From Candidatus Latescibacterota bacterium (GTDB lineage Bacteria; Krumholzibacteriota; Krumholzibacteriia; Krumholzibacteriales; Krumholzibacteriaceae): 64,000 nt of DNA. The notes under the pieces are model-generated. The model saw only the letters and a program-made list of their open reading frames with translations, was not told the origin of the DNA and searched no databases. Location of the stretch: positions 1,687-65,686 of the forward strand of contig JAHOYU010000078.1 of assembly GCA_019038625.1 (NCBI GenBank), given 5' to 3'. Made by a program: the position numbers and the translations under genes. Shown in pieces: positions 10,466 to 26,973 of this stretch. The stretch's first letter is position 1, and the number at the start of each line of letters is the position of its first letter.

Positions 10466-10885
10466 ATGAGTGAATGGGAGCCAAAGATTCTTGCAGTCCT
10501 GTGTAACTGGTGTTCATACGCCGGGGCTGATCTCGCGGGTGTTTCGAGGATGCAATATCCGCCGAACATCCGTGTAGTGAGAGTGCCCTGTTCGGGCAGG
10601 GTCGATCCTCTCTTTATCCTCAAGGGTCTGCAGAGCGGGTACGATGGGGTCCTGGTTTCGGGATGTCATCCTGGAGATTGTCATTATATTTCGGGCAACT
10701 ATGTCGCGCGAAGACGTTTCGCGGTTCTCAAGCCTCTTCTCGAGTTCGTCGGAATAGAGCCGGACAGGGTCCAGTTCTCCTGGATATCTGCCGGTGAGGG
10801 AGAGCGTTTCGCGGAAGTAGTCAGCAAGGTCACAGAGGATATAAAGAAGATCGGTCCCGCGAAGAGACTGGTCAAGGGAGCATGA
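10466..10885 (+). CDS. mvhD: MvhD/FlxD-like protein, copy 3
   Basis: 'VLCNWCSYAGADLAG...VPCSGRVDP...GCHPGDCHY'; immediately follows the tandem HdrA. Confidence 0.8.
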   Translation: MSEWEPKILAVLCNWCSYAGADLAGVSRMQYPPNIRVVRVPCSGRVDPLFILKGLQSGYDGVLVSGCHPGDCHYISGNYVARRRFAVLKPLLEFVGIEPDRVQFSWISAGEGERFAEVVSKVTEDIKKIGPAKRLVKGA

Positions 10886-11850: not shown

Positions 11851-11855
11851 GGAGA

Positions 11856-12890: not shown

Positions 12891-12900
12891 GGAAGTCCAG

Positions 12901-13734
12901 ATGAGCAATACATATATCCCCATCCAGATGAAAGTGGAGCGGATAGAGATCGAAGATCCCGACAAGGCATTGCGTACGTTTGACCTCGTTTTTGTGAATG
13001 AGGAAGATAAAAAGAATTTCGAATATATGCCGGGGCAGTTTTGTGAATGGTCGCTGCTCGGACTGGGCGAATCGCCGTTCGGAATAGCGTCGTCACCGAC
13101 TGAGACCGATTTTCTGCGGTTTACCGTGAGCAGGACGGGTTCTGTGACGAACGAGATTCATTACCTGCGGGAAGGCGACACTATAGGTATCCGTGGCCCG
13201 ATGGGGAACTGGTATCCGGTTGAGAAATTTAAAGGTGGGAATGTAGTCATCATCGGTGGAGGCTTCGCATTTACTACCCTCAGGTCCCTGATAGTCTACA
13301 TGCTTGAACATCGTGAAGACTATGGGGATATAACGGTGATCTACGGAGCGAGGGCACCGGAGCTTTTCATTTACAAAGATGAGATCTCAGAGTGGCAGAA
13401 ACGCGATGACATCGATATTCAGCTCACGATAGACAATCCGGCGGATGGATGGGATGGCAGGACCGGCTTTGTTCCCGCGGTGACAAAAGAGATCGCTCCC
13501 TCGACGGAGAACACCTGGGTCGTCGTCTGTGGCCCCCCGATCATGATCAAGTTTACCCTGCCTGTCCTCAGCGAGCTGAAGTTTGCTGACGACCGGATCT
13601 ATACATCGCTCGAGAGAAGAATGAAATGCGGGATCGGTAAATGCGGAAGATGCAATATCGGCTCGAAATATATATGTATCGACGGCCCGGTTTTTTCGCT
13701 GGCCGAACTGAAGAAAATACCAGAAGCGTTTTAA
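12901..13734 (+). CDS. FlxA/AsrB/HydG-like FAD-NAD(P)-binding oxidoreductase with C-terminal [2Fe-2S] (PyrK-like), copy 1
   Basis: FNR-like fold 'VVIIGGGFAFTT' and C-terminal 'CGIGKCGRCNIG..YICIDGPVF' cluster motif; ~277 aa. Confidence 0.7.
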   Translation: MSNTYIPIQMKVERIEIEDPDKALRTFDLVFVNEEDKKNFEYMPGQFCEWSLLGLGESPFGIASSPTETDFLRFTVSRTGSVTNEIHYLREGDTIGIRGPMGNWYPVEKFKGGNVVIIGGGFAFTTLRSLIVYMLEHREDYGDITVIYGARAPELFIYKDEISEWQKRDDIDIQLTIDNPADGWDGRTGFVPAVTKEIAPSTENTWVVVCGPPIMIKFTLPVLSELKFADDRIYTSLERRMKCGIGKCGRCNIGSKYICIDGPVFSLAELKKIPEAF

Positions 13735-13749
13735 AAGGAGAATGACCGG

Positions 13750-14220
13750 ATGGAAAAGATCATACTCAGCGAGAAGGATCCCAACTTCAAGAACGAGATC
13801 GCGTCCCAGCCGGGAGCTGAGAGTTTCATGCGCTGCTTCACATGTGGCACATGCACAGCATCCTGTCCCGTAGCCGAAGTACACGACGAATATGATCCGA
13901 GACGGATCATCAGGATGGCCGTCTTGGGGATGCGCGAAGAGGTACTCTCGTCTGATATCCTCTGGATGTGTTCGAGATGTTACACCTGCGCGGCTCTTTG
14001 CCCCCAGAATGTCAAGTTCACCGATGTGATCAGCATTTTGAGAGATATGGCGGTCAAGCAGGGATACGCGTCCAAGGAAAGGCTGGAACAGGCCAGGGAT
14101 CTGGACAGGATGATTCAGACGATACGATGCAGAGTGATCGACAATAAGCTGCATCCTGATAAGAAAAATGTAGAAGAGATTAAGTTGATGGTAGATGAAG
14201 AGCTGAATAACAAGTGGTAA
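13750..14220 (+). CDS. hdrC: HdrC-like 2x[4Fe-4S] ferredoxin subunit
   Basis: Two CxxCxxCxxxCP motifs separated by ~50 aa ('CFTCGTCTASCP', 'CSRCYTCAALCP'), ~156 aa, typical HdrC/SdhC-like layout. The only HdrC in the window. Confidence 0.65.
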   Translation: MEKIILSEKDPNFKNEIASQPGAESFMRCFTCGTCTASCPVAEVHDEYDPRRIIRMAVLGMREEVLSSDILWMCSRCYTCAALCPQNVKFTDVISILRDMAVKQGYASKERLEQARDLDRMIQTIRCRVIDNKLHPDKKNVEEIKLMVDEELNNKW

Positions 14221-14272
14221 TGGTCCGTCTGGCTGCGGACGTCTTCAGGGAGACCCTGTAAGAGGAGAGCTC

Positions 14273-15397
14273 ATGAAACCTGAAAAAATATGGTCATTTG
14301 ACGATCTCAGGGAAGAAGTAGTCCTGGCAGATCTTTGTGGAAAGTGTGGAGGATGCGTGTCGTTCTGCTCCGCGAACAGGATCGGGGCGCTCGTGATGGA
14401 TGATAAAGGATACCCGGATTACAAGGACAAGGATCTCTGCCTCCAGTGCGGGATGTGCTACATGGTCTGTCCCCAGACTCATCCGATGAAGGAAGAAGTC
14501 GACGAAGCGTACAACTGGAAAGAGCCGATCGGGCACTTCATGGATGTCTTTTCGGCCAGGAGCACAGACTTGGGGATACGGAAAGTTGCTACAGACGGAG
14601 GCGTAGTTACCGCGCTTCTGGCAAATATGCTGGACAAGGGACATATCGATGGGGCTGTCGTATCTCTCGGGAAGTCCCTGTTGAAAAGAGAAGTAAAAGT
14701 AGCGACGACAAGAGAAGAACTTATAGAGGCCGCCGGGTCACATTTTTCAGAGTTGCCTCATCTGGAAGAGATGGGCGAAGGATATTCGACTTTTGTGCCA
14801 GTCGTGAAATACATACAGGAACTTGGGGCTGTAAAGACTGTCAGGGTCGCAGTTGTGGGGACCCCTTGTCAGATAGGCGCAATCCGAAAAATGCAGATTC
14901 TCAATGTAGTGCCGGCTGACATCGTGACCTTTGCCGTCGGCCTGTTCTGCATGCAGTGCTTCGAGATGGAACATCTCCTGGACAAGGACTTCATCCGGCA
15001 GTACGGGATAACGGCCGACGATATAGCCAGGGTGAATATCAAGGAAGATTTCATGCTTACCATGAAGTCTGGAGTGACTGTGCATATACCGCTGAAAGAG
15101 ATCGAGGAGATCGTCAGGCCCGCCTGTCTCTCCTGCGAACTTTTCTCTAACGATTATGCCGACATTTCGGTTGGCGGCCTTGGTTCGACGGACGGATATA
15201 CCACGGTGATGGTCCGTACGGTGAAGGGCAAGGAAATGATGGCCGATGCCATTTATGGTGGAGCAATAGAGCGGAAGGTCAGGAAATATCCTGAAGACAA
15301 CGAGATCGAGAAAAAGCGTACTATTTCCCTCGTGAAGGAATTCACAGGATTGAAAAAATCACGGGGGCTGGAATATAGAATGAAAAACAGGAGTTGA
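14273..15397 (+). CDS. FrhB/FdhB-family protein (F420-hydrogenase/dehydrogenase beta-like) with N-terminal 2x[4Fe-4S]
   Basis: N-terminal 'CGKCGGCVSFC...CLQCGMCYMVCP', then a FrhB-like N/C domain pattern ('GGVVTALLANML', 'VAVVGTPCQIGAIRK', 'PACLSCELFSNDYADISVGGLG'). Occupies the position where HdrB would normally be. Confidence 0.6.
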   Translation: MKPEKIWSFDDLREEVVLADLCGKCGGCVSFCSANRIGALVMDDKGYPDYKDKDLCLQCGMCYMVCPQTHPMKEEVDEAYNWKEPIGHFMDVFSARSTDLGIRKVATDGGVVTALLANMLDKGHIDGAVVSLGKSLLKREVKVATTREELIEAAGSHFSELPHLEEMGEGYSTFVPVVKYIQELGAVKTVRVAVVGTPCQIGAIRKMQILNVVPADIVTFAVGLFCMQCFEMEHLLDKDFIRQYGITADDIARVNIKEDFMLTMKSGVTVHIPLKEIEEIVRPACLSCELFSNDYADISVGGLGSTDGYTTVMVRTVKGKEMMADAIYGGAIERKVRKYPEDNEIEKKRTISLVKEFTGLKKSRGLEYRMKNRS

Positions 15398-15436
15398 AGG
15401 ACAACTCGAAAAAAGATCGGACAGGAAAACGGTGTG

Positions 15437-16312
15437 ATGATCAAAAAAACGAAAAAAACGAAATCGGGATCCGTTCTGGTAGTTGGTGGAGGTATCGCGG
15501 GTATCCAGTCGTCGCTTGATCTCGCGGAGTCTGGATTCAAGGTGCATCTCCTTGAAGAAACGCCGGCGATCGGTGGAACGATGGCGCAGCTGGACAAGAC
15601 ATTTCCCACGAATGATTGTGCCATGTGTGTCATTTCACCGAAACTTGTCGGGGCCGGGCGCCATTTGAATATTGAGCTTACTACAAACTCGGAAATAATG
15701 GGTGTGAGTGGTGAGGCTGGAAATTTCAAGGTAAAGATCAAAAAGAAACCAAGGTATATCGACGCGGATAAATGTACGGGCTGTGGAGCCTGCACGCTGA
15801 ATTGTCCGGTGATCAACGTAATATACCCTGTTGAGAAACCGTATGTAAAACTGAGTATTGAAGTCATGCGAAAAGTCAGGCCTATCCTGGATGAATATCA
15901 TGGTAAAAAAGGCAACCTCATGCCGATCCTGCAGCAGATAAATCATACATTCAATTATCTGCCGCCCGATGTGTTGAGCTATATTTCCATAGAACTGGAT
16001 ATAAGATTGTCGGAGATCTATAATATCGCTTCATTTTATAATTCTTTCAGTCTCACGCCGCGCGGGCGACACATCATAAAAATATGTATGGGAACTACCT
16101 GCTACGTTAAGGGTGGAGAAAGACTGTTCAATAAGGTGAGAGACGAGTACGGAATCGAAAATGGGGAAACAACGAAGGATATGAGATTTACCATAGAGTC
16201 TGTCGCGTGTCTTGGTTGCTGCGGTCTCGCGCCGGCAATTATGGTCGATGATGAGGTATACGGAAAAGTAAAAGTAAGCAGTATAATGAAAATCCTTGAA
16301 AAGTATAAATGA
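15437..16312 (+). CDS. Fusion protein: HdrA N-terminal FAD-fold fragment + NuoE-like [2Fe-2S] thioredoxin-like subunit
   Basis: N-terminal ~150 aa match the first part of HdrA ('VLVVGGGIAGIQSSLDLAESG...DKTFPTNDCAMCVISPK...CTGCGACTLNCPV'). C-terminal ~140 aa are NuoE/HoxE-like ('ICMGTTCYVKGG...CLGCCGLAPAIMVDDEVYG'). The ORF track starts at a GTG (15434); the ATG at 15437 is used here. Confidence 0.7.
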   Translation: MIKKTKKTKSGSVLVVGGGIAGIQSSLDLAESGFKVHLLEETPAIGGTMAQLDKTFPTNDCAMCVISPKLVGAGRHLNIELTTNSEIMGVSGEAGNFKVKIKKKPRYIDADKCTGCGACTLNCPVINVIYPVEKPYVKLSIEVMRKVRPILDEYHGKKGNLMPILQQINHTFNYLPPDVLSYISIELDIRLSEIYNIASFYNSFSLTPRGRHIIKICMGTTCYVKGGERLFNKVRDEYGIENGETTKDMRFTIESVACLGCCGLAPAIMVDDEVYGKVKVSSIMKILEKYK

Positions 16313-16361
16313 GAATAATTTGACCGTATCATGAATACATTGAATCAGCAGAAGGAAAATA

Positions 16362-18215
16362 ATGGCTAAAATTTCAAATATTAAAGCCTTTGAAAAGTTG
16401 AAAAAGAAACTTGAAGAGGGAATAGATCTCAACAGAAAATCCATCTGTGTCTGTGGAGGATCTGCCTGTATCGCTACCGGAAGCCTCGGGTTGATCGACT
16501 TGTTTGAAAAAGAACTTAAAAAGCATGGAATAGACGATGAAGTCGATATCCTGGTCACCGGATGTCACGGGTTCTGCGAGAAAGGGCCTTTAGTCGTTAT
16601 CCGTCCGGAAGGCATATTCTATCCCCTGGTAAAAAAAGAGAATGTGCCGGACATCGTCACAGAATCGGTCATTGAGGGAAAGCCGATCGAATCTCTTCTA
16701 TACACGGATCCGATGACTGACGAGAAGATTGTTTTTGAACATGATGTTCCATTTTATAAAAAGCAGAAGCGACTTGTTCTCGGGAACAATGGATTGATCG
16801 ATCCGATGGTCATCACAGATTATATCCGCGTGGGTGGTTACAAGGCTTTAGCCACAGCCCTGGATTCGATGACTTCTGATAAGGTGATCGAGACGATCAT
16901 TGAATCCGGACTGAAAGGCCGCGGTGGTGGAGGCTTTCCGACAGGCGTGAAATGGAAGCTTTGCAAAAATGCCAAAGGAAAGACCAAGAATATAGTCTGT
17001 AATGCAGACGAAGGGGACCCCGGGGCATACATGGACAGGTCTATCCTGGAGGGCAATCCTCATTCTGTCATCGAGGGGATGCTCATAGGCGGCTTTGCTA
17101 TTACCGCATCCACAGGATATATATATGTCCGCACAGAGTATCCACTTGCGATACAGCGACTGAAACAGGCTATCAAGCAGGCAAAGGCGCTCGGGTTCAT
17201 CGGGAAAAACATTCTCGGCACAAAGTTTTCATTCGATATAGAGATAAGGGAAGGTTCCGGGGCCTTTGTATGTGGCGAAGAGACCTCTCTGATGCATTCG
17301 ATCGAGGGATTATCTCCGGAACCAAGCCAGAGGCCTCCGTTTCCGACTGAATCGGGGCTTTGGGGAAATCCTACGAACATCAACAATGTGGAGACCTGGG
17401 CTGTCGTTCCTCTGATTATAAACGAGGGAAGCAAATTCTTTTCCAGCATTGGAACGGAGAACAGCAAGGGGACCAAGATATTTTCTCTTGTAGGGAAAAT
17501 CAATAATTCGGGACTGGTAGAGGTGCCCATGGGGATATCGATGGGAGAGATCATCAATGGTATCGGGGGCGGCATACCTGACGGAAAGGCTTTTAAGGCG
17601 GTCCAGACCGGGGGCCCCTCTGGAGGGTGTATCCCCGCCGCATTGATGGACATTCCTGTCGATTACGAAAAGCTTGCTGAAGTAGGATCGATAATGGGCT
17701 CTGGCGGTATGGTCGTAATGGACGAAGATACATGTGTCGTCGATATCGCGAAGTATTTCCTTTCTTTCACGAATGACGAATCGTGTGGCAAGTGTACTTC
17801 CTGCAGGGATGGCAGCAGGATGATGCTGAATATCCTCACGCGGATATCGGAAGGACAGGGCAAACCTGAGGATATCGATCTGCTTCTTGAGCTTGGTGAA
17901 GCGATCAAGGATGCCTCTCAGTGCGGGCTTGGACAGACCCTGTCAAATCCTGTGCTCTCTACGATAAGGTATTTCAGGGATGAGTATAATGCTCATATTG
18001 TGGACAAGAGATGCCCCGCGCATGTCTGTAAGGAACTTGTCAATTACAGCATAGATCCTGAAGCGTGTATCGGGTGTGGAGTCTGTCTTAAGAACTGTTC
18101 TGTCGGAGCAATCACCGGCAAGATCAAAGAAGCACATTTAATCGATCCTGATGAATGCACAAAATGTGGTGTGTGCAGGGAAGTCTGCAAATTCAATGCG
18201 GTCATTGTGGAGTAA
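16362..18215 (+). CDS. nuoF: NuoF-like NADH-binding FMN/Fe-S subunit (51-kDa family; HndC/HydB-like with extra N- and C-terminal Fe-S domains)
   Basis: 'GRGGGGFPTGVKWKL' FMN/NADH site and an SLBB/4Fe-4S region ('ESCGKCTSCRDG'). N-terminal thioredoxin-like [2Fe-2S] ('CVCGGSACIATG...GCHGFCEKGP') and C-terminal 2x[4Fe-4S] ('CIGCGVCLKNC...CTKCGVCREVCKF'). Confidence 0.8.
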   Translation: MAKISNIKAFEKLKKKLEEGIDLNRKSICVCGGSACIATGSLGLIDLFEKELKKHGIDDEVDILVTGCHGFCEKGPLVVIRPEGIFYPLVKKENVPDIVTESVIEGKPIESLLYTDPMTDEKIVFEHDVPFYKKQKRLVLGNNGLIDPMVITDYIRVGGYKALATALDSMTSDKVIETIIESGLKGRGGGGFPTGVKWKLCKNAKGKTKNIVCNADEGDPGAYMDRSILEGNPHSVIEGMLIGGFAITASTGYIYVRTEYPLAIQRLKQAIKQAKALGFIGKNILGTKFSFDIEIREGSGAFVCGEETSLMHSIEGLSPEPSQRPPFPTESGLWGNPTNINNVETWAVVPLIINEGSKFFSSIGTENSKGTKIFSLVGKINNSGLVEVPMGISMGEIINGIGGGIPDGKAFKAVQTGGPSGGCIPAALMDIPVDYEKLAEVGSIMGSGGMVVMDEDTCVVDIAKYFLSFTNDESCGKCTSCRDGSRMMLNILTRISEGQGKPEDIDLLLELGEAIKDASQCGLGQTLSNPVLSTIRYFRDEYNAHIVDKRCPAHVCKELVNYSIDPEACIGCGVCLKNCSVGAITGKIKEAHLIDPDECTKCGVCREVCKFNAVIVE

Positions 18216-18217
18216 AT

Positions 18218-21200
18218 ATGGGAGCAAAAACAGAAATGATCAGTCTGACTATTGATGATAGACCTGTTGAAATGGCGGAAGGCGCCACAATCCTCGAGGC
18301 TTGTGGCAAGCTCGACATCAAGATCCCCACGCTTTGTTATCATAAAGCGCTTTCTTCCTACGGGGCATGTCGCCTGTGCCTGGTAGAGATAGAAGAGAAC
18401 GGCAGGACTTCGATACGCACTTCATGTAACTATCCGGTCTCGGAAGGTATCAAGGTCAGGACGGACACAGAGAGGATCATTCGAAACCGGAAAATAATGG
18501 CGGAACTTCTCCTTGCGAGGTGTCCCGATTCCAAAAAGATCCAGAGTGTGGCCGCGGCGCTTGGTGTGACAGGAAATAGAATGGACCTGAAGCACGAGGA
18601 TTGCATCCTGTGTGGTCTGTGCGTCCGTATGTGCAGGGAACGGATGGGCAAGGGAGTCCTCGGGTTTTCCAACAGGGGCAGCGAAAGAATCGTGTCGCCC
18701 GCCTTTAACGAACAATCGGAAGAGTGTCAGACCTGCGGGGCCTGTTACTATATCTGTCCCGTAGAAAAAGGCATCAAGCTTGACGAGATATCTGAAAACA
18801 AACCCAAGTTTATAAGTTCCGATTTCGACGCCGGGCTGGTCGGCAGGCCTGCCGTTTATATCCCATATGCGCAGGCGGTGCCGAATTACGCGAATATCGA
18901 TCCGGAACTGTGCGTACATCTGACCACGGGCGAATGTCAGATATGTACGGAATTCTGCGAAGCGGAAGCGATCGATTTCAATCAGAAAGAAGAGCTGGTC
19001 GATCTCGATGTCGGCTCGATCATCATCACGACAGGAGCCGACACATTCGATCCGACCGGAATGCATGAGCTTGGTTATGGCAGATACAGCAATGTTCTGA
19101 CAAGTATTCAGTTTGAGCGGATTCTTGCCGCATCGGGTCCGTTCGAGGGGCATCTTCAGAGACCTTCGGACGGGAAGGTCCCGGTCAAGATAGCATGGCT
19201 GCAGTGTGTTGGGTCCAGGACAGAGGACTCGAGTATGCCTTATTGTTCTTCGGTCTGTTGCATGTATGCCATGAAAGAAGCCATAATCGCGAAAGAACAT
19301 GTCCCCACAGTGGAACCGAAGATCTTCTTTATGGACATGAGGGCGCATGGGAAAGATTTTGATAAATATTACGATCAGGCTAAAAATACCGGAGTGGAAT
19401 TTGTCAGAGGCAGAATCGGAAAGATCAGGGAGATCCCCGATACGGGCAACCTGGTACTCTACTACACGAGCGAGAAGGGTGAAGTAAAACAGGAAGAATT
19501 CGATCTGGTCGTTCTGTCTATCGGTCTTACTCCAAGAAAAAATGCCGGAGAACTTTCCGACAGGCTGGGGATACGGCTGAACGAATTTAATTTTATCGAA
19601 CATATCGGAAATTCGCCTATCGAGACTACGAAGCCGGGCATTTTTGTCTGTGGCCCCGCTGTTCAGCCCAAAGATATTCCCGAAACGGTGATGCAGGCTT
19701 CGGCGGCTGTCGCCGGCGCCGCGGAACTGCTTTCGGATGTGAGGGGCACAGAGATAACCGTAAAAGAATACCCTGCTGAAAAAGAAGTGCGGGGGCAGAG
19801 GCCGAGGATCGGTGTCTTTGTCTGTCATTGCGGCACCAATATTGGCAGCATCGTCGATGTTCCCTCTGTGGTCGAGTATGTTAAATCATTGCCTGATGTA
19901 GTCTATGCTGAAGAGAATCTCTTTACCTGTTCACAGGATACACAGGAAAAGATGAAAGAGATCATTGAGGAACATAAGCTCAACAGGGTAGTCGTCTCAT
20001 CATGCTCGCCCAGTACTCATGAGCCGCTTTTCCAGGAGACCCTCAGGGAGTCGGCACTGAATCCCTATCTCTTCGATATGGCAAATATACGTAACCAGTG
20101 CAGTTGGGTACACAGGGCCGACCACGCGAAAGCGACCGATAAGGCCAAGATCCTCACCCGGATCGCGATCGGCAAGGCGAGACTGCTCGAGCCGCTTCAT
20201 ACGATAGCGCTCGACGTCACTCAGAAGGGTCTGGTCGTCGGGGGAGGGCTGGCCGGGATGGTTGCCGCCCTTTCAATAGCGGATCAGGGGTTCGAGGTGG
20301 CTCTCATCGAGAGAGACTACAGATTGGGTGGCAACCTGAACAGGTTGAAGAGAAGGCCGAATGGCGAGAAGGTCATAGACTGTCTTGAGGATTACAGGCA
20401 GAGGATCGCAGACAACCCGAAGGTAAGGGTCTTCCTTGATTCGGAAATATTGGCCATAGATGGATATGTCGGCAATTATGTGACCTCGATACGCAATAGT
20501 AAATCGGAAAATGTCGATGATTATGAACATGGGGTCATTGTCATAACAACCGGCGCGAAAGAGACTGAGCCAAAGGAATATCTTTTCGAAGATGACAGGG
20601 TGATATCTCAGCTCGATCTCGAAGATGTATTTGAGGAAGATGAAAAGACTCTCTCAAAACTGAAAAATGTAGTGATGATACAGTGCGTCGGTTCGCGTGA
20701 TGAAGAACACCCCTATTGTTCGAGAGTCTGTTGCACCCAGGCGGTCAAGAACTCGATCCGGTTAAAGAAACTCAATCCGAAGATGAACGTCTACGTCCTC
20801 TATCGCGACGTTCGTACTTACGGGTTCAACGAGATATATTATCAGGAAGCAAGGGCGCTCGGGGTGACTTTTATAAGGTATGAGGAAGACGCGAAGCCTG
20901 TCGTGGAGTACGTGGATGACGAGAAGAAACAGATCTCGGTCAGCGTTATGGATATCGTTCTCGGGGGCGAGGTGGAGATCAGGCCGGACAGGGTCATACT
21001 GGCGCCGGCGATGATTCCCCAGGACGACGCGTCGACGATATCTCAGATGCTGAAGATACCCCTGAACGAAGACAGCTTTTTCATGGAAGCGCACGTAAAG
21101 CTCAGGCCGGTCGATTTTTCTGCCGAGGGTATTTACCTCGCCGGACTCGCCCACTCTCCCAAGCAGATGGACGAGACGGTATCCCAGGCAAAAGCGGCGG

Positions 21201-21490
21201 CCGAAAGAGCATGTATAATAATAAGCTCTGACGAGTATGTCTCTGTTGCGAATATTGCCGAGGTCGACGTGGATACCTGCGCGGCCTGTGGGATGTGCGT
21301 GGCTGCCTGTCCTTATGGGGCTCCCGGGCTTGTCTGGCTCGGAGGCAGACAGGTCTGTCAGATCAACACAGCTCTCTGCAAGGGTTGCGGCAGCTGTGGG
21401 GCGGTCTGTCCGTCGGGAGCGATGCAGCAGCTCGGATTCAAGGAGATCCAGACTCTCGAGATGGTGAACCAGTCACTTGGGTTGTTATAG
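18218..21490 (+). CDS. Fusion protein: NuoG/HydA-type N-terminal Fe-S domain ([2Fe-2S] + His/Cys 4Fe-4S) + HdrA remainder (lacking first ~150 aa) + second complete HdrA
   Basis: N-terminus 'CYHKALSSYGACRLCLVEIEENGRT...SCNYPV' ([2Fe-2S], Cx10CxxCx13C) and 'HEDCILCGLCVRMC', 'CQTCGACYYICP'. It then joins HdrA at the inserted-ferredoxin point ('CVHLTTGECQICTEFCEAEAI...TTGADTFDP'). 'LQCVGSRTEDSSMPYCSSVCCMYAMK' follows, then 'VGVFVCHCGTNI', a second FAD site 'LVVGGGLAGMVAALSIADQG', 'QCVGSRDEEHPYCSRVCCTQAVK' and a C-terminal 2x[4Fe-4S]. Start moved to the ATG at 18218, 2 nt after the nuoF stop. Confidence 0.75.
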   Translation: MGAKTEMISLTIDDRPVEMAEGATILEACGKLDIKIPTLCYHKALSSYGACRLCLVEIEENGRTSIRTSCNYPVSEGIKVRTDTERIIRNRKIMAELLLARCPDSKKIQSVAAALGVTGNRMDLKHEDCILCGLCVRMCRERMGKGVLGFSNRGSERIVSPAFNEQSEECQTCGACYYICPVEKGIKLDEISENKPKFISSDFDAGLVGRPAVYIPYAQAVPNYANIDPELCVHLTTGECQICTEFCEAEAIDFNQKEELVDLDVGSIIITTGADTFDPTGMHELGYGRYSNVLTSIQFERILAASGPFEGHLQRPSDGKVPVKIAWLQCVGSRTEDSSMPYCSSVCCMYAMKEAIIAKEHVPTVEPKIFFMDMRAHGKDFDKYYDQAKNTGVEFVRGRIGKIREIPDTGNLVLYYTSEKGEVKQEEFDLVVLSIGLTPRKNAGELSDRLGIRLNEFNFIEHIGNSPIETTKPGIFVCGPAVQPKDIPETVMQASAAVAGAAELLSDVRGTEITVKEYPAEKEVRGQRPRIGVFVCHCGTNIGSIVDVPSVVEYVKSLPDVVYAEENLFTCSQDTQEKMKEIIEEHKLNRVVVSSCSPSTHEPLFQETLRESALNPYLFDMANIRNQCSWVHRADHAKATDKAKILTRIAIGKARLLEPLHTIALDVTQKGLVVGGGLAGMVAALSIADQGFEVALIERDYRLGGNLNRLKRRPNGEKVIDCLEDYRQRIADNPKVRVFLDSEILAIDGYVGNYVTSIRNSKSENVDDYEHGVIVITTGAKETEPKEYLFEDDRVISQLDLEDVFEEDEKTLSKLKNVVMIQCVGSRDEEHPYCSRVCCTQAVKNSIRLKKLNPKMNVYVLYRDVRTYGFNEIYYQEARALGVTFIRYEEDAKPVVEYVDDEKKQISVSVMDIVLGGEVEIRPDRVILAPAMIPQDDASTISQMLKIPLNEDSFFMEAHVKLRPVDFSAEGIYLAGLAHSPKQMDETVSQAKAAAERACIIISSDEYVSVANIAEVDVDTCAACGMCVAACPYGAPGLVWLGGRQVCQINTALCKGCGSCGAVCPSGAMQQLGFKEIQTLEMVNQSLGLL

Positions 21491-21768
21491 GAATTAGGGG
21501 TAAGAGAGATATCCCGTGCCGGGCGCGGAAGCAGGAATGAGCCCGGCGAAGCAACAAAATTTTACTACTATGGTCTGAGATTTTTTCTGTCTTTTGGCCC
21601 AGCGCTATAGGATTTCCCGCATTTATTAATGCCAGCGTCGGATTCTGCTTGCTTAATTACTTAAATAAATTATCTTGACATCTATCTGACGTTTATGACA
21701 GACTGCCGTCTGTTATATTGGACTAGGCGTTACGCATCGGTTGATAAATCAAATAAGGGGCCGCTGAA
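21491..21768. promoter_or_regulatory. 278-bp AT-rich intergenic region inside the cluster with a perfect inverted repeat ACAGAC-N4-GTCTGT (21698-21713) flanked by TTGACA (21675-21680) and TATATT (21714-21719)
   Basis: The only sizeable non-coding gap inside the co-directional cluster. The palindrome is read directly from the sequence. Spacing of the -35/-10-like hexamers is non-canonical, so promoter assignment is tentative. Confidence 0.3.
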
Positions 21769-21801
21769 GTGGCCGTAACATTCTTTCAGGAAAAGAATTA
21801 T

Positions 21802-22854
21802 ATGCGATTCATCGACTCAACGAATTTTGAAAGACTACTGAAGAAGCTCTCCGGCGAAGGTGAGCTTTTCGTGCCTGTACTTGATGAGGATTCACAAAAG
21901 AATCACTTTGAGCGAGTAGAGGCCTTCCCTCTTCCCGAAGGAACGAACTTCGAAGGTTTCAGGGCCGTCGAGACTCTAAAGGGTTTTGCTCAGCTTGTTC
22001 GTTCGATGGTGGCGAGGTATCCGACCGAAGGCATGGACGAGATGGATGTGGCGGAGTTACTTCCCACTTTCGTCATAGTCGGGGCCAAGGCCTGCGATGT
22101 CCGCGCCATGCAGCTCGTGGATAAGGTACAGGTCGAGGGTGAATTTACGGATCCTTTCTACAAGGCTCGCAGGGACAAGATGATCATTATCGCGTCGGAT
22201 TGTACTGAAGCGGGTGAAACCTGTTTCTGCAATCTGCTGGGCAGCAATCCATGGCCTGAAAGCGGTTTCGATCTTTCGATCTCGAAGGTCAACGGCGGCT
22301 ATCTGCTCGAGACTGGCAGTGACCGCGGAAAGGCGATCGAGGAAGAGAACAAGGACCTGTTTACCGATCCTCGAGAGGGCCAGGAGAAGAGCAGGGACGA
22401 GATCAGGATGACAGTCCTTGCCGGACTCAAGGCCACGAACAGGGATTACCCTTCCGGTGATAAAGTAACAGAACCACTCAGAGAAGCCCTGTCCGATCCA
22501 CTATGGCACGATGAAGCGGCCCGCTGCCTGGAATGCGGAGCCTGCACGAATATATGTCCCACATGCTACTGCTTCCTGCTCTTCGACCAGAAGGATGAGA
22601 GCGGTGAAGGGTACAAGAGAATAATGTCCTGGGATTCCTGCCAGGTAACGGGGTATGCCAGAATGGCCGGAATGGGGAATCCAAGGCCTCGACTCTCCGA
22701 TCGCGTGAAGCACCGCCTGTACCATAAGTACGATTATCTCGTGCTCAGTCACGGTGAAATATTCTGTACAGGTTGCGGAAGATGCATCGATGCCTGTTCC
22801 GCGAGCATTGACATGAGAGAAGTTTTTGGCAGGGTAACCAAGGCAGCCAAGTAA
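21802..22854 (+). CDS. AsrA/FlxB-family Fe-S protein, copy 5
   Basis: 'CLECGACTNICPTCYCFLLFD ... SWDSCQVTGYARMAGMGNPRPRLSDRVKHRLYHKYDY ... CTGCGRCIDAC'. Start moved to the ATG at 21802, behind RBS 'AGGAAAAG'. Confidence 0.65.
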   Translation: MRFIDSTNFERLLKKLSGEGELFVPVLDEDSQKNHFERVEAFPLPEGTNFEGFRAVETLKGFAQLVRSMVARYPTEGMDEMDVAELLPTFVIVGAKACDVRAMQLVDKVQVEGEFTDPFYKARRDKMIIIASDCTEAGETCFCNLLGSNPWPESGFDLSISKVNGGYLLETGSDRGKAIEEENKDLFTDPREGQEKSRDEIRMTVLAGLKATNRDYPSGDKVTEPLREALSDPLWHDEAARCLECGACTNICPTCYCFLLFDQKDESGEGYKRIMSWDSCQVTGYARMAGMGNPRPRLSDRVKHRLYHKYDYLVLSHGEIFCTGCGRCIDACSASIDMREVFGRVTKAAK

Positions 22855-22867
22855 GGGAGAGAAGGGT

Positions 22868-23686
22868 ATGAACAACCCGTATTATCCCATAGATACGGTC
22901 CTGGAAGATGTAATAACAGAGACACCTACGATTAAGACCTTCTGTCTCAAGCCAGTGCGTCCGGTCAAATTCAAATCTGGGCAGTTCATGCAGTTGACCG
23001 TTCCCGGTGTTGGTGAAGCCCCCTTCACTCCCAGTTCCGATCCGAACATCACGGAGAAGATGGAGATCACCATCCTCAAGACGGGTAAGGTAACAGACGC
23101 TCTTCACGAACTCAAGCCGGGGGCGAAAGTAGGGCTCCGGGGTCCCTTCGGCAAAGGGTACCCGCTGGAAAAACTTGAAGGCAAGGAAGTGGTCGTTGTA
23201 GGTGGTGGAGTAGGCCTGGCTCCGATGAGATCTTTACTCTACGGACTTTTCGATGATCCTTCAAAATACAAACGGATATCCATAAAGTTCGGCGCTCGTG
23301 AACCTGCCGAACTCTGTTTCAAGCGCCAGTACAACGAATGGGTCAATCTATCGCCGAACATCGACCTTACAACTACGATCGACATTCCTCATCCCGAATG
23401 GGATGGAAAGGTCGGCCTGGTGACGACACTGCTGGACGATCTGGATATAAACATAGCGGAAAGCTACGCGCTTTCCTGTGGTCCCGAGATCATGCTGAAG
23501 TTTGTTACGCTGAAGCTTCTCGAGGTTGGATACAAGCCGCCCCAGATATACCTTTCGATGAACAGGAAGATGTCCTGCGGAATGGGTAAGTGTGGGCGAT
23601 GCAATGTCGGGCATTACTATCTCTGCGTAGATGGCCCCGACATGTGTTACGACAAAATAAAGCACGTTCCAAATGTATTCGGTTAG
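22868..23686 (+). CDS. FlxA/AsrB/HydG-like FAD-NAD(P)-binding oxidoreductase with C-terminal [2Fe-2S], copy 2
   Basis: 'VVVVGGGVGLAPMRSL' and C-terminal 'CGMGKCGRCNVGHYYLCVDGP'; paralogue of 12901. Confidence 0.7.
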   Translation: MNNPYYPIDTVLEDVITETPTIKTFCLKPVRPVKFKSGQFMQLTVPGVGEAPFTPSSDPNITEKMEITILKTGKVTDALHELKPGAKVGLRGPFGKGYPLEKLEGKEVVVVGGGVGLAPMRSLLYGLFDDPSKYKRISIKFGAREPAELCFKRQYNEWVNLSPNIDLTTTIDIPHPEWDGKVGLVTTLLDDLDINIAESYALSCGPEIMLKFVTLKLLEVGYKPPQIYLSMNRKMSCGMGKCGRCNVGHYYLCVDGPDMCYDKIKHVPNVFG

Positions 23687-23740: not shown

Positions 23741-25531
23741 ATGAGTGAGATAAAAAACTATTGCTCCCTTTGTTCGCTGGCCTGCCCTGTTATTTTCAGG
23801 GGCGGAAAAAGAGGACCCATTTTTTCGAAGGATTCGCTTCTGACGATTGACTGGGACACCAGCGAAGAATCCAAATACGGCGGTAGTCTCTGTGCTCGTG
23901 GAAATGCCGCAATCGAATTCGTATCCCATCCGAAAAGAATCAATTATCCATTCGTTATCGGTGAGAGGACAAGGATAGAAGCGGCTGTCAAGGAGACTGC
24001 GAAAAATCTTTCTGCCATTAAGGATGAATCAGGTGGCGAGAAGATCGGTGTCCTGATAGGAGAGAATCTTACAAACGAAGAGGCAGCTCTGGCTCTGAAG
24101 TTCGCGAAAGAAGTCCTGGGGACTTCGAAGGTCGAGCTGTTCGCTCCAGATGATACACCATTATTCCGTTCATGGCTGGGGTGTGACCTTTCAGCCCTCG
24201 CGTCGACGGCAGAAAAACCGGCCGGCACGAAGAAAACCTTTCTCATAATCGGTGATTCTTTCTCTGAACATCCATGTACGGCAAAGCCGGTCCTCGCTGC
24301 CAGGTATTCGGGGAGGGGCAACGAAATAATCGTGATCAGTCCCGAGATCAGTCATACGGCATGGTTCGCGGGCAGGCACCTGCGGTGCAGGCCGGGAGGA
24401 GAAGCTGCTGTGGTAGCCGGCATGCTTAAGTCGGTTGCTGAGACGACGGCAAACGGTCTTGTGCCTGAATTGAAAAAACTGATGGACGGGGTCGAGTGGA
24501 ATGATATTGAAAGACTCGGGGGCGTGAAGCAGGACGCTATCGAAGGCGCCGCGGCTTCGGTCCTCGGTGCTGTAGGAATAGAGACTTACGTATCCAATAT
24601 CTTTGGCCGGTTCGCGATGCCAGGGCTCGTGTCGATCCTTGCAGAGGCGCTTACGGCGATATGCCCGGGGGATTCGAAATTCGATGCCCAGTTCGTGCAG
24701 CAGAATTCCTGGGGTATATATTCGGTGCTTGCAGCGGGCGAGACAACTCCGTTTCTCTCAAATCTCGAAGGTGAAGAGGTGGAGGCTCTGGTGATTCTGG
24801 GGCTGGATATCTTCTCGGCGTATCCCGCGGGCCCAATTGAAAACGCGCTGCGTGAAAAGAAATTTACAGTCGCTTCGCAGATGTTTTTCGGTCAGACCGC
24901 TTCGAGGGCGAATGTCGTTATTCCTGCGGCATGCCTGATGGAAAAGAAGGGGACTGTTTCTCCATCGTTCGGTGAAGACCTTGTCAGAGAAGACGTTATC
25001 GATCCTCCTGGAGGAGTGCTGACCGATGGTGAGTTCCTGGTCGCGCTTGCAAAGGAGATGGGTTCTGATCTTTCGGGTCCTGTCGATGTAGTGAGAAAGA
25101 TTTCCAGAGGCAGTTCGGGCGAAGGCGTTGTAGCGGACTGGACCGCCTTTTCGAACACCATCAGGGAGTTGGACGCGTCAGGAATGGTGTTGATACCCTG
25201 GAGCGAAGCTGTTCATGTCGCGGATGGTTCGACCAGCAGGAACCTTCACTGGTCAGAAGTGACATGTCCGGAACCAAGGCTGTATGTATCGAAAGAGACG
25301 ATGGATGAGCTTAACCTTGCCGAAAACGATCTGGTCAAGGTCTCTTCCGAGGGTGGAGAGGCTGTGCTGCCGGTCGAGGCGACCGAAAAACTGCAGGGCG
25401 GAACGGTAGCCGCGACGATTCATTTCCCCTCGGTAAGAAAGCTTTTCCCATGGAAGCTGGATGATCGCCGTGGAGAGGTGCTGCTCGCGCCGGTCCCGGT
25501 CAACCTTGACAGTCAGAGTGAGAAGAGCTGA
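23741..25531 (+). CDS. Molybdopterin-oxidoreductase-family protein (formate-dehydrogenase-alpha/NuoG-C-terminal-like), probably non-catalytic
   Basis: N-terminal Mo-bisPGD-type 4Fe-4S motif 'CSLCSLACP...(35 aa)...GSLCARG'. Only 596 aa. In the region aligning with the FdhF 'CCARVU/CHGPSVAG' active-site loop, no Cys/Sec-His was recognised by eye. Confidence 0.55.
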   Translation: MSEIKNYCSLCSLACPVIFRGGKRGPIFSKDSLLTIDWDTSEESKYGGSLCARGNAAIEFVSHPKRINYPFVIGERTRIEAAVKETAKNLSAIKDESGGEKIGVLIGENLTNEEAALALKFAKEVLGTSKVELFAPDDTPLFRSWLGCDLSALASTAEKPAGTKKTFLIIGDSFSEHPCTAKPVLAARYSGRGNEIIVISPEISHTAWFAGRHLRCRPGGEAAVVAGMLKSVAETTANGLVPELKKLMDGVEWNDIERLGGVKQDAIEGAAASVLGAVGIETYVSNIFGRFAMPGLVSILAEALTAICPGDSKFDAQFVQQNSWGIYSVLAAGETTPFLSNLEGEEVEALVILGLDIFSAYPAGPIENALREKKFTVASQMFFGQTASRANVVIPAACLMEKKGTVSPSFGEDLVREDVIDPPGGVLTDGEFLVALAKEMGSDLSGPVDVVRKISRGSSGEGVVADWTAFSNTIRELDASGMVLIPWSEAVHVADGSTSRNLHWSEVTCPEPRLYVSKETMDELNLAENDLVKVSSEGGEAVLPVEATEKLQGGTVAATIHFPSVRKLFPWKLDDRRGEVLLAPVPVNLDSQSEKS

Positions 25532-25533
25532 TC

Positions 25534-26013: not shown

Positions 26014-26025
26014 TGGAGAGGACAA

Positions 26026-26958: not shown

Positions 26959-26973
26959 GTCGCGGAGGCAAGT

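Follow-up and report, generated by a model that had tools for sequence, protein, structure and literature searches.

A putative hybrid bifurcating enzyme: an HdrA module encoded in two pieces around a HydBC/Bfu-type unit

Three adjacent genes in a 64,000-nucleotide stretch of a Candidatus Latescibacterota genome (GTDB Krumholzibacteriota; contig JAHOYU010000078.1; hereafter the window) raise the question of whether one HdrA module can be encoded on two polypeptides, and what is encoded between its parts. The original prediction was that an HdrA FAD domain is divided between the first and third gene products, with a NuoEFG N-module in between. The three open reading frames lie on the + strand at 15434/15437-16312 (291 aa counted from the ATG), 16362-18215 (617 aa) and 18218-21490 (1090 aa). 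We took 18218 as the start of the 1090-aa protein from the starts of its homologues; the listed frame runs from 18155.

The 291-aa product is a fusion protein. By BLASTP, phmmer and motifs, its residues 1-125 (15437..15811, + strand) correspond to the start of the TrxR-like FAD domain of HdrA. They carry a GGGIAG motif at 17-22, the motif DKTFPTNDC61AMC64 and the first Cys motif of the inserted ferredoxin domain (C113, C116, C119, C123-P124). Two features expected of this segment, a GxGxxG start and a ferredoxin Cys motif, are both present, but the HdrA part is about 125 rather than about 150 residues long. Residues 140-291 and the stop codon (15854..16312, + strand) form a NuoE/HydC (BfuC)-type thioredoxin-like [2Fe-2S] domain (Pfam PF01257, 2Fe-2S_thioredx, at 149-291, E 1.4e-48).

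The 1090-aa protein begins with a BfuA/NuoG-type N-domain that ends in a short linker (residues 1-197; 18218..18808, + strand; Pfam and WorA match). The rest of HdrA module 1 occupies residues 198-525 (18809..19792, + strand), as placed by phmmer against 5ODC_A and BLASTP against the window HdrA. It contains the second Cys motif of the inserted ferredoxin domain (C232, C240, C243, C247), the remaining TrxR-like FAD domain and an HA4-type cluster motif (C330, C343, C347, C348), and its E300 and K353 align with E356 and K409 of MtHdrA. Residues 527-661 (19796..20200, + strand) are equivalent to the MvhD-like N-terminal domain of HdrA (phmmer to 5ODC_A 2-~135). This domain, with Cys536, Cys538, Cys571 and Cys596, bridges both HdrA modules. 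A second TrxR-like FAD module follows at residues 662-1005 (20201..21232, + strand). It has a separate GGGLAG (675) and a CC motif (838-839), and neither an NDCxxC motif nor an inserted ferredoxin domain is present. The C-terminal HdrA units of BamE and of the Moorella and Sporomusa HdrAs are laid out in this way too. The protein closes with the C-terminal 2x[4Fe-4S] ferredoxin domain of HdrA (residues 1006-1090 and the stop codon; 21233..21490, + strand; Pfam Fer4 at 1015-1068, and phmmer).

We compared both HdrA pieces with the intact tandem HdrA encoded in the same window at 7406-10465. Residues 8-125 of the 291-aa protein align with residues 3-120 of this reference (BLASTP, 56% identity, E 7e-42), identifying the fragment as HdrA and not as an unrelated Rossmann domain. 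Residues 169-1078 of the 1090-aa protein align with residues 107-1001 (45% identity, E 0), so the complementary coverage that had been predicted was borne out. In phmmer comparisons with HdrA of M. thermolithotrophicus (5ODC_A), residues 12-125 of the 291-aa protein match 145-258, and three segments of the 1090-aa protein follow: 190-453 match 251-511, 527-764 match 2-239, and 940-1083 match 503-646. On this mapping the pieces abut, with nothing lost or doubled except a generic Cys motif. As anticipated, the 1090-aa protein has no Rossmann GxGxxG of its own before residue 675 in a motif scan, and neither the window protein nor any of 120 homologue clusters has such a motif ahead of the first HA4 motif. 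The inserted ferredoxin domain is divided between its Cys motifs, with C113-C123 on one chain and C232, C240, C243 and C247 on the other. Chain breaks flank the 617-aa gene on either side, and HdrA module 1 is therefore produced as a pair of polypeptides. A chimera of residues 1-125 and the second piece gave a predicted model with pLDDT 85 and pTM 0.85, in which a single chain forces contact; it superposes on solved HdrA chains with TM 0.80-0.81 across ~433 columns, the pieces being joined by construction. The chimera thus models as a complete HdrA core fold. Taken together, the comparisons strongly support the view that a single TrxR-like FAD module of HdrA is spread over two complementary parts, and that NuoE-, NuoF- and NuoG(N)-like sequence separates them.

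The 617-aa protein (16362..18215, + strand) decides what kind of module interrupts HdrA. Pfam places in it, in order, an N-terminal Trx-like [2Fe-2S] domain, an FMN/NADH-binding NuoF core, an N3-type [4Fe-4S] domain and a C-terminal 2x[4Fe-4S] ferredoxin domain. Residues 24-614 match NiFe-HydB (7t2r_B) with E 2.5e-237, and the protein also matches HydB (7q4v_B/8a6t_B) and NfnB-Bfu (9n5u_B) over its full length. The match to complex-I Nqo1 is weaker (E 1.8e-114). We therefore rejected the assignment as complex-I NuoF: the protein has the N- and C-terminal cluster domains of HydB, and it matches NiFe-HydB far more strongly than Nqo1. NiFe-HydC (7t2r_C) is the best solved match to the NuoE-like domain (E 1.5e-46). 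The N-domain of the 1090-aa protein (Fer2_4 at 6-84, Fer4_Nqo3-like at 121-182; Pfam) has a [2Fe-2S] site (C40, C51, C54, C70) and a 2x[4Fe-4S] ferredoxin-like region (C129-C139, C170-C180). Inspection of motifs and matches revealed neither a His-ligated cluster motif nor a molybdopterin-like C-domain. Its ungapped match to WorA (9MQX_A residues 6-181, E 7e-34) is the basis of its identity as BfuA(N), as the full-length matches are for BfuB. The predicted NuoG-type N-terminus followed by resumed HdrA therefore holds, except that the CQTCGACYYICP motif at residues 170-181, previously read as HdrA, belongs to the BfuA-type ferredoxin domain.

Judged by these matches, the intervening module is of the electron-bifurcating HydBC/Bfu type and not a respiratory NuoEFG N-module, as first proposed; the locus therefore joins two different bifurcation modules. 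The unit spans about 1000 residues and, by motif count, holds FMN and about seven Fe-S clusters. It departs from the Bfu (HydABC) family (NiFe-HydABCSL, FeFe-HydABC, NfnABC, WorABCSL) in that BfuC bears an N-terminal HdrA fragment and BfuA(N) is joined to HdrA instead of a hydrogenase, GltD or adaptor domain. The published Bfu classes, from a survey that excluded metagenomic data, do not include an HdrA-fused type (PMC9304861), and we found no paper on an HdrA split around a Bfu module.

A search for homologous architectures recovered the identical three-gene layout and breakpoints in dozens of independent MAGs and metagenomes. The trio occurs in Krumholzibacteriota, Eisenbacteria, Fermentibacterota, Planctomycetota (Pirellulales, Phycisphaerae), Cloacimonadota and an Asgard (Promethearchaeota) MAG. 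The gene order, fusion-BfuB-BfuA::HdrA, is the same in all related loci that extend far enough to reveal it; one G-type homologue from Dehalococcoidia (L082) has no adjacent NuoE/F genes. The split layout is real and is found in numerous uncultured bacteria as well as some archaea. Across 120 clusters of fusion-protein homologues, the mean top-residue frequency is 0.80 in the HdrA fragment and 0.66 in the NuoE part. GxGxxG and CxxCxxCxxxCP are present in 120/120 clusters and DKTFPTxDCxxC in 119/120. This pattern strongly supports a conserved arrangement under constraint.

The closest known plan is that of Moorella thermoacetica HdrA (1487 aa) from the MetFV-HdrABC-MvhD methylene-THF reductase; in this protein a GltD NAD(P)H domain interrupts the extra TrxR/ferredoxin module within the same chain (PMC9430772). 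ANME-1 HdrA has an NfnB-like insertion in its inserted ferredoxin domain (PMC9012536). These proteins (HdrA9-11 in ANME-1, with the NfnB/GltD insert) and a 1485-aa form from Delongbacteria (L033) are tandem HdrAs like that of the trio, and all place an NAD(P)H-binding flavo-iron-sulfur module between both Cys motifs of the N-terminal module's ferredoxin domain. A rough tree places the split clade as the sister group of these forms, the Delongbacteria one included. In the trio the insert has three Bfu parts (BfuC, BfuB, BfuA-N) instead of a single GltD domain. It is made as separate chains, and the HdrA module is therefore physically split, unlike in the other forms. The breakpoint also differs, lying directly after the first CxxCxxCxxxCP in the trio and about 35 residues later in the Delongbacteria protein.

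Other HdrA systems share some features with the trio. The class II benzoyl-CoA reductase of Geobacter metallireducens (BamBCDEFGHI) unites a HydBC/Bfu-type NADH/ferredoxin module (BamG, BamH, BamI) and a tandem HdrA (BamE) in one complex. The N-terminal TrxR unit of BamE has a bifurcating FAD, a CxxC pair and an inserted ferredoxin domain (preprint 10.64898/2026.04.10.717634; PMC9304861). BamE, BamG and BamI are separate intact proteins, unlike the trio, and are linked differently, from the BamI clusters through the C-terminal ferredoxin domain of BamE to the MvhD-like BamF. The window proteins scanned include neither of the reductase's output modules, BamBC (the tungsten enzyme) and BamD. Methanogen HdrA (MvhAGD-HdrABC, 5ODC; Fdh-Hdr-Fmd, 7BKB; Elp-Hdr, 8RVU) has the E356/K409 pair and HA4 Cys motif that the trio keeps, but it is a single chain that forms homodimers, and its ferredoxin domain has no insert and docks free ferredoxin or polyferredoxin. 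The NADH dehydrogenase/heterodisulfide reductase FlxABCD-HdrABC of sulfate reducers is, as here, a soluble NADH-linked HdrA system, but NADH enters it through the small FAD/[2Fe-2S] protein FlxA and the MvhD-like FlxD, with neither a NuoF/Bfu module nor a split HdrA.

We conclude that the trio probably encodes one hybrid enzyme module built from two electron-bifurcation machines. In the gene arrangement, a HydBC/Bfu-type unit lies inside the first TrxR-like module of a tandem HdrA and follows directly on the first of the two Cys motifs in the inserted ferredoxin domain. It comprises BfuC (NuoE-like), BfuB (NuoF-like FMN/NADH part with an extra [2Fe-2S] and 2x[4Fe-4S]) and the BfuA N-domain (NuoG-like). 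On the BfuC N-terminus, piece 1 supplies the NDCxxC pair, the beta-alpha-beta motif that binds the FAD dinucleotide and one half of the ferredoxin domain. On the BfuA(N) C-terminus, piece 2 supplies the other half, the E/K flavin markers, the HA4-type cluster motif and what remains of the FAD domain, and an uninterrupted second HdrA unit comes after it. Reassembly would leave one FAD and two [4Fe-4S] clusters held jointly by two chains and would lock the Bfu module onto HdrA. The Bfu core would handle NADH, and probably also ferredoxin. By analogy with Moorella HdrA, NADH entry is a plausible role for the interrupting module, and electrons would then run from the BfuA clusters through the ferredoxin-domain clusters to the HdrA FAD. 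Such entry, first suggested as direct wiring of the NADH/FMN site to the HdrA flavin, is hypothetical and not canonical. The junction falls within the inserted ferredoxin domain, which serves as the low-potential exit arm in the solved HdrA and BamE structures, where input to the FAD runs through the C-terminal ferredoxin domain and MvhD (preprint 10.64898/2026.04.10.717634).

The same hybrid might instead run with the Bfu role reversed, which we consider unlikely. Low-potential electrons would leave the inserted ferredoxin domain for BfuA, and the Bfu core, a built-in acceptor replacing free ferredoxin, would reduce NAD+ and ferredoxin. HdrA would receive its electrons by way of MvhD and its own C-terminal ferredoxin domain, from another donor such as the FrhB-like protein, Flx-like proteins or a hydrogenase. 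The insertion point at the exit domain fits this direction, as do the reversible Bfu cores, which accept mid- or low-potential electrons from BfuA (PMC9304861). Gene neighborhoods point both ways. MvhD and NiFe hydrogenase genes adjoin the trio in the Asgard locus (L081), and an MvhD-like gene lies downstream of it in three bacterial class-2 loci (L025, L028, L029). Against reversal, the metagenomic locus L083 has the operon acs-hdrC-hdrB-[trio]-mvhD(Sec)-metV-metF, in which the trio takes the place of the NADH-oxidising Moorella hdrA beside hdrCB, mvhD and metVF; this operon is of the Wood-Ljungdahl type. The Moorella-type in-chain analogue itself sits in an NADH-oxidising complex, and energy would be wasted if a low-potential electron that is itself a product of bifurcation were bifurcated again down to NAD+.

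It is very unlikely that the HdrA fragment is a vestige or docking tag on the NuoE-like protein, leaving module 1 a flavin-free scaffold and the second HdrA module and Bfu core catalytic. Split Rossmann domains are unusual, and one of the two TrxR modules of BamE was judged non-bifurcating and mainly structural (preprint 10.64898/2026.04.10.717634). Yet no other part of the fusion protein is as well conserved as the fragment, down to its cofactor motifs, and the NDCxxC pair, inserted ferredoxin domain and E/K markers all sit on the split module, whereas module 2 lacks the first two.

A membrane-bound complex, complex-I-like or Mbh-type, is encoded downstream of the trio (26026-34623), and a NuoG-C-like molybdopterin protein and the membrane module lie 2-13 kb away. 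The NuoE/F/G-like parts could on this account be its NADH input and the HdrA likeness incidental domain shuffling, a reading to which we assign hardly any probability. The large subunit of the membrane complex carries NiFe-binding motifs and is therefore a group-4 hydrogenase, not complex I, and the 617-aa protein is HydB-type. Moreover, synteny of the downstream genes is limited to the closest relative (L001), whereas the upstream Hdr/Flx-like neighbors are kept across two candidate phyla. An assembly, frameshift or gene-calling artefact cutting a normal HdrA, for which we found no supporting point, is refuted by the recurrence of the layout and by the complete 617-aa gene between the pieces, with gaps of 49 nt and 2 nt.

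The upstream genes suggest partners for the hybrid enzyme. Flx-like genes (ShyB/AsrA-like, ShyC/AsrB-like, MvhD-like) lie close upstream within the conserved cluster. No MvhD gene directly adjoins the trio in the window, where MvhD genes lie at 1205, 6939 and 10466. Unlike the Moorella system, the window lacks metVF, and the window proteins scanned with Pfam include no product of an HdrB (CCG) gene. An FrhB/FpoF-like flavo-iron-sulfur protein (374 aa; 14273..15397, + strand; Pfam FrhB_FdhB_N, FrhB_FdhB_C and Fer4, and NCBIfam) is encoded directly upstream of the fusion gene, 39 nt away, and is syntenic in 10/11 Krumholzibacteriota/Fermentibacterota loci examined, L013 being the exception. Before it lies the gene for an HdrC-like 2x[4Fe-4S] protein (156 aa; 13750..14220, + strand), matched by NCBIfam CoB_CoM_SS_C with E 1.4e-27, under the curated cutoff; such a gene is upstream of the trio in 22/24 split loci.

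Bfu and tandem-HdrA modules already function as one complex in BCRII (preprint 10.64898/2026.04.10.717634). In the hybrid enzyme proposed here, the high-potential branch would lead from the HdrA FAD through the HA4-type cluster to the HdrC-like protein, its likely first acceptor, and on to a partner that would be FrhB-like in this bacterium and HdrB or HdrB-MetVF in other lineages.

Three co-directional genes on the + strand encode a small fusion protein of 291 aa (15437-16312), a BfuB of 617 aa (16362-18215) and a large fusion protein of 1090 aa (18218-21490), as placed by an ORF map. The intergenic gaps within this trio measure 49 nt and 2 nt. Pfam assigns a Rossmann start (residues 13-50), a single 4Fe-4S motif (residues 106-125) and a NuoE-type thioredoxin-like [2Fe-2S] domain (residues 149-291) to the small protein. 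The 617-aa protein contains a thioredoxin-like [2Fe-2S] domain (2Fe-2S_thioredx, residues 25-100), the NuoF FMN domain (Complex1_51K), the NuoF 4Fe-4S domain (NADH_4Fe-4S) and a C-terminal dicluster ferredoxin (Fer4, residues 563-613). The large protein opens with a Fer2_4 [2Fe-2S] domain (residues 6-84) and a NuoG-like ferredoxin domain (residues 121-182), followed after residue 182 by pyridine-nucleotide-disulfide-oxidoreductase and ferredoxin domains. No full-length NCBIfam model fits either fusion protein; every match was partial and under cutoff. Scanning 13600-22000 for promoters and terminators returned nothing exceeding shuffle expectation, so the operon limits are drawn from gene spacing only.

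We compared both fusion proteins with the intact tandem HdrA encoded in the window (7406-10465, 1019 aa). In BLASTP alignments, residues 8-125 of the small protein matched residues 3-120 of this HdrA (56% identity, E 7e-42), and residues 169-1078 of the large protein matched residues 107-1001 (45% identity, E 0). The original prediction held that one HdrA module is encoded as two complementary pieces, and these alignments do cover the module without loss. When the solved HdrA from M. thermolithotrophicus (5ODC_A) was used instead, residues 12-125 of the small protein covered 145-258, which together with the identity to the window HdrA identifies this N-terminal region as HdrA. The large protein covered 251-511, then 2-239 and then 503-646, the 2-239 match representing the N-terminal domain and a second Rossmann start. 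The GGGIAG motif at residues 17-22 of the small protein is the GxGxxG that opens the TrxR-like FAD domain, the remainder of which lies on the other polypeptide. A motif scan of the large protein found no Rossmann GxGxxG before residue 675, a position within the second HdrA module, in agreement with the proposal that this protein lacks an FAD-binding N-terminus of its own. HdrA homology ends at '...NCPV' in the small protein and restarts at 'ISSDFDAGL' in the large one, and these points are just two residues apart in intact HdrA. In solved HdrAs and in BamE, the entire catalytic module resides on one polypeptide, whereas here it is divided between the products of the genes at 15437 and 18218. 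We consider the observation of a split HdrA to be solid.

The two pieces appear to overlap at residues 107-120 of the window HdrA (251-258 on 5ODC_A), which correspond to a CxxCxxCxxxCP motif present in both proteins. Going by the BLASTP alignment, the large protein would complete the HdrA ferredoxin domain in cis with its own CQTCGACYYICP motif. We rejected this pairing for two reasons. The motif, together with its partner C129-C139, finds an uninterrupted match in the BfuA ferredoxin domain of WorA and HydA, and the 16 cysteines in four motifs suit two complete 2x[4Fe-4S] domains. The segments C170-C180 and C129-C139 align without gaps to the short BfuA subunit WorA (9MQX_A) 6-181 (E 7e-34), and HydA was matched too. 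Given these matches we assign C170-C180 to a BfuA-type domain, and the overlapping CxxCxxCxxxCP of the large protein is accordingly not part of HdrA. This assignment implies that the HdrA inserted ferredoxin domain is itself divided between the two proteins. Its first Cys motif (C113, C116, C119, C123) is found on the small protein and its second (C232, C240, C243, C247) on the large protein, and the inserted 2x[4Fe-4S] domain has both of its Cys motifs only when the two proteins are combined.

The fold of the joined pieces was examined by modeling a chimera, in which residues 1-125 of the small protein and 198-525 of the large protein form a single chain, with AlphaFold2. Using a 121-row alignment, the model reached a pLDDT of 85 and a pTM of 0.85, with low confidence in residues 1-4 and in cofactor loops 48-63 and 123-153. 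A model made without an alignment (pLDDT 33) was discarded. Foldseek matched the chimera to the solved HdrA chains 8RWN_A, 8RVU, 5ODC_A and 7BKE_A with E values of 1e-42 to 1e-47 and TM scores of 0.80-0.81 over 432-447 columns. The model shows that the two pieces together make up a complete HdrA core, but it is no proof of association because a single chain forces them together.

The break falls in the first of the two HdrA units. This module 1 retains the inserted ferredoxin domain, an HA4-type Cys motif and E300/K353, and its DKTFPTNDC61xxC64 segment is located on the small protein. On the large protein, C330, C343, C347 and C348 align with MtHdrA C386, C399, C403 and C404 (HA4-type, CxGSR...C...CC). 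E300/K353 align with MtHdrA E356/K409, equivalents of which serve as markers of a bifurcating flavin (PMC9430772). Module 2, the uninterrupted unit starting at residue 662, has its own GGGLAG and CC...K motifs; a motif scan of the large protein found neither NDCxxC nor an inserted ferredoxin domain in it. BamE has been described with the same plan: its bifurcating FAD and a Cys59-Cys62 pair are located in the TrxR unit at its N-terminus (preprint 10.64898/2026.04.10.717634). Moorella and Sporomusa HdrAs share this two-module plan as well.

We examined the identity of the module encoded between the HdrA pieces, which had been taken for a NuoEFG N-module. The 617-aa protein matched NiFe-HydB (7t2r_B) over residues 24-614 with an E value of 2.5e-237 and other HydB/BfuB chains with E values of 1e-194 to 1e-225. 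Its match to Thermus Nqo1 (E 1.8e-114) was confined to the core. In addition to the NuoF core, it contains the N-terminal Trx-like [2Fe-2S] domain and the C-terminal 2x[4Fe-4S] domain that define BfuB. Residues 140-291 of the small protein align with residues 5-156 of NiFe-HydC (7t2r_C, E 1.5e-46), its best match, and supply the NuoE-like [2Fe-2S] subunit expected of BfuC. The BfuA(N) portion of the large protein has a [2Fe-2S] site and a 2x[4Fe-4S] domain that match WorA 6-181; the conserved proximal clusters of the BfuA N-domain are named A1 and A2 (PMC9304861). No HxxxCxxCxxxxxC motif for a His-ligated cluster was seen in the NuoG-like part of the large protein, which ends near residue 182 and gives way to HdrA sequence, with no molybdopterin-like C-domain. 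The trio thus does not present the N5 cluster, NuoG C-domain and plain NuoF of the respiratory complex I N-module. The NuoEFG label had to be abandoned because the 617-aa protein carries the two domains specific to HydB and its scores strongly favor HydB over Nqo1/NuoF. By these comparisons, the intervening module is of the Bfu/HydBC type rather than complex-I NuoEFG.

The Bfu unit is joined covalently to either end of the HdrA break, which would lock it within the HdrA complex. There it would act as the NADH site, and probably also as the ferredoxin site. By motif count, the three proteins would together hold roughly 3 [2Fe-2S] and 11 [4Fe-4S] clusters. From FMN, electrons would run via the clusters of BfuB and BfuA to those of the reassembled ferredoxin domain and then to the HdrA FAD, while a high-potential branch would exit via HA4 to the HdrC-like protein and its partner. 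This predicted mechanism, which is plausible, is the one we consider most likely. The main alternative reverses the electron assignment, so that Bfu would be a built-in acceptor for the low-potential arm of HdrA. It is favored by the role of the inserted ferredoxin domain as the low-potential exit in solved HdrA and in BamE (preprint 10.64898/2026.04.10.717634).

The genomic context bears on the partners of the trio. The upstream cluster encodes the tandem HdrA (7406, + strand), MvhD (10466), an Fe-S protein (10882), Flx-like ShyB/AsrA-like (11856) and ShyC/AsrB-like (12901) proteins, an HdrC-like protein (13750) and an FrhB-like flavo-Fe-S protein (14273). Krumholzibacteriota and Fermentibacterota MAGs keep this block (7406-15397, + strand) in synteny with the trio, and 22 of 24 split loci have an HdrC-like gene ahead of the trio. 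HdrB (CCG), MetF, DUF5981 and AOR-family proteins were absent among the window proteins scanned with Pfam. Downstream, a 278-nt gap separates the trio from a second ShyBC-like pair (21769-23686, + strand), consisting of a ShyB/AsrA-like protein (361 aa) and an FAD/NAD-binding protein (272 aa). The + strand region at 23741-36517 encodes an Fdh-like molybdopterin protein with similarity to the NuoG C-domain, a 4Fe-4S protein, NuoH/B/C/D-like proteins, antiporter-like subunits, MbhD/E, MnhE and a HycI protease. Its large subunit (27994-29199) contains the NiFe-binding motifs RICGICSCSH and DPCYSC, and the region looks like a formate-hydrogenlyase/Mbh-type group-4 membrane-bound NiFe hydrogenase, not complex I. 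The second ShyBC-like pair, the Fdh-like gene and the hydrogenase are syntenic with the trio only in its closest relative (L001). This synteny and the NiFe motifs led us to reject the trio as the N-module of the downstream membrane complex. Elsewhere in the window, a 576-aa + strand ORF (57918-59648) lies nearly all within a 1009-aa - strand ORF (57969-60998) that has an M1 peptidase domain. The 576-aa ORF is probably spurious given this overlap and its lack of a Pfam match.

We searched databases for the split architecture, and homologs recur across many bacterial groups and in archaea. Full-length homologs of the small protein form at least 120 clusters (90% identity) in public metagenomes, at 55-95% identity, and all are annotated as NuoE, as NAD(P)H-dependent oxidoreductase subunit E or as hypothetical. 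Conservation across these clusters is higher in the HdrA fragment (0.80) than in the NuoE part (0.66), and the three cofactor motifs of the fragment are kept in 119-120 of 120. Among species-representative genomes, a Candidatus Krumholzibacteriia MAG is the closest relative (94%), and further homologs belong to Eisenbacteria, Aegiribacteria/Fermentibacteria/Sabulitectum, Pirellulales, Phycisphaerae and Cloacimonadota. On every contig of sufficient length, the fusion gene is followed by the BfuB gene and then the BfuA::HdrA gene. A search with residues 1-525 of the large protein recovered BfuA(N)::HdrA lacking the HdrA start in WOR-3, Aminicenantes, Aerophobetes, Latescibacterota, Planctomycetota, Dehalococcoidia and Desulfobacterota, as well as in Thermoprotei, Thermoplasmatota and Promethearchaeota. 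None of the 120 listed clusters of these relatives has a Rossmann motif before the first HA4 motif. In a Dehalococcoidia genome (L082, CP070810.1), an 820-aa protein of this type (6001-8462) has neither a NuoE nor a NuoF gene nearby. CBS-HATPase, DRTGG, PHP and HATPase genes, a set usually seen in HydABC operons, lie ahead of it. This protein could be a relic, or it could have partners encoded at another site.

A 50%-identity library contained about nine full-length representatives that cross the junction, and a similar number of fragments, in two length classes (~300 aa and ~420-436 aa). Class 1 comprises this window, Krumholzibacteriota, Fermentibacterota and a JGI metagenome contig (L083), with small proteins of ~290-300 aa and large proteins of ~1090 aa (tandem HdrA). 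Class 2 comprises Pirellulales, Phycisphaerae, Cloacimonadota and an Asgard MAG (L081), with small proteins of ~420-435 aa and large proteins of ~590-615 aa (single HdrA). The class-2 small protein is longer because the HdrA N-terminal domain precedes its Rossmann start. Five of the six bacterial class-2 loci have HdrC- and HdrB-like genes upstream of the trio; downstream of it, L025, L028, L029 and L081 have an MvhD-like gene. Between its fusion gene and bfuB, L026 carries accessory genes of the HydABC-operon type (a small Trx-like [2Fe-2S] protein, DRTGG, CBS-HATPase, PHP and HATPase). The window has a third HdrA system at 1205-4651 (+ strand), homologs of which are found directly downstream of the class-2 trio in L028 and L029. 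In the Promethearchaeota MAG L081 (8710-13491), the genes after the trio and MvhD encode the small and large subunits of a NiFe hydrogenase and an 801-aa HdrA::MvhD fusion, and an intact 646-aa HdrA is encoded 5' of them all.

An unsplit relative, a single chain of 1485 aa, is present in Delongbacteria and Neomarinimicrobiota. Its GltD/NfnB-like domain sits in the same ferredoxin domain, ~35 residues beyond the breakpoint of the trio. Tandem HdrAs of ~1485-1500 aa with this Moorella-type insert (Delongbacteria locus L033, 8004-12461; L032, L034, L035 and others) are common in Delongbacteria, Neomarinimicrobiota and Cloacimonadota and also occur in Thermoplasmatales; ~1500-aa representatives are numerous in the 50% library. 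A neighbor-joining tree of the module-1 remainder placed class 1 as sister to the GltD-insert forms, and class 2 and the Asgard copy elsewhere. We tentatively suggest that the split arose more than once, although a tree without support values makes several origins possible rather than established.

We compared the trio to known HdrA-containing systems. Among the window proteins scanned with Pfam, none had the AOR-family or CCG domains expected of the class II benzoyl-CoA reductase (BCRII) set (tungsten AOR-type BamB, BamC and HdrBC/HdrD-like BamD with BamE-I). Nor was the Moorella arrangement, with metF, metV, hdrB, hdrC and mvhD adjoining the trio, seen among these proteins; only an HdrC-like gene is adjacent. 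The full Moorella-type adjacency does occur in L083. In L083 and L084, both JGI metagenome contigs, a class-1 trio (297, 636 and 1088 aa) is found in the order CODH, ACS, CdhD-type CFeSP subunit, AcsE, HdrC, HdrB, trio, MvhD, MetV, MetF. This order is the Moorella-type hdrCBA-mvhD-metVF layout with the trio at the hdrA position. The L083 MvhD gene (13146-13595) has an in-frame TGA (…VAG*MEGECH…) that the gene caller resolves as two FlpD fragments and that probably encodes selenocysteine, as in BamF. The Moorella MetFV-HdrABC-MvhD complex oxidizes NADH. HdrA with an in-chain GltD/NfnB interruption (PMC9430772, PMC9012536), Bfu and tandem HdrA in one complex in BCRII (PMC9304861; preprint 10.64898/2026.04.10.717634) and nuoEFG-mvhD-hdrA gene neighborhoods in a sulfate reducer (PMC4046663) have all been described. 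We found no description in the full-text literature of an HdrA in two polypeptides around a Bfu module, though an earlier mention in a review is possible.

Flavin-based electron bifurcation has four known solutions, among them the HdrA-type and Bfu-type modules. To our knowledge, BCRII is the sole characterized enzyme that couples them. It does so through separate subunits, whereas the trio interleaves both at the gene level. With more doubt than confidence, we propose that the trio represents a widespread, previously undescribed enzyme class in which two mechanistically different bifurcation centers, the Bfu FMN/Fe-S site and the HdrA FAD, are hard-wired to each other for good through ferredoxin and flavin domains that are each built from two subunits. 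The predicted sharing of one flavin site and two [4Fe-4S] clusters between chains is a strong, testable structural prediction. If the proposal is true, confurcation and bifurcation could proceed in sequence among NADH, ferredoxin and a high-potential acceptor with no soluble carrier between the steps. The trio is also evidence that the loop region of the HdrA inserted ferredoxin domain has served repeatedly as a socket for NAD(P)H modules, filled by a GltD/NfnB domain in-chain or by an entire Bfu module in pieces. The trio further corrects the labels 'NuoE', '(2Fe-2S)-binding protein' and 'FAD-dependent oxidoreductase, partial' in many candidate phyla and an Asgard MAG. Hard-wiring would make the L083-type trio the NADH/ferredoxin-coupling part of methylene-THF reductase in Wood-Ljungdahl organisms, a role that would bear on the question in the literature of the second, low-potential acceptor of the Moorella-type complex. 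Through its metVF/acs operon link in one lineage, the trio is a candidate for coupling NADH and ferredoxin to methylene-THF reduction in some uncultured acetogen-like organisms.
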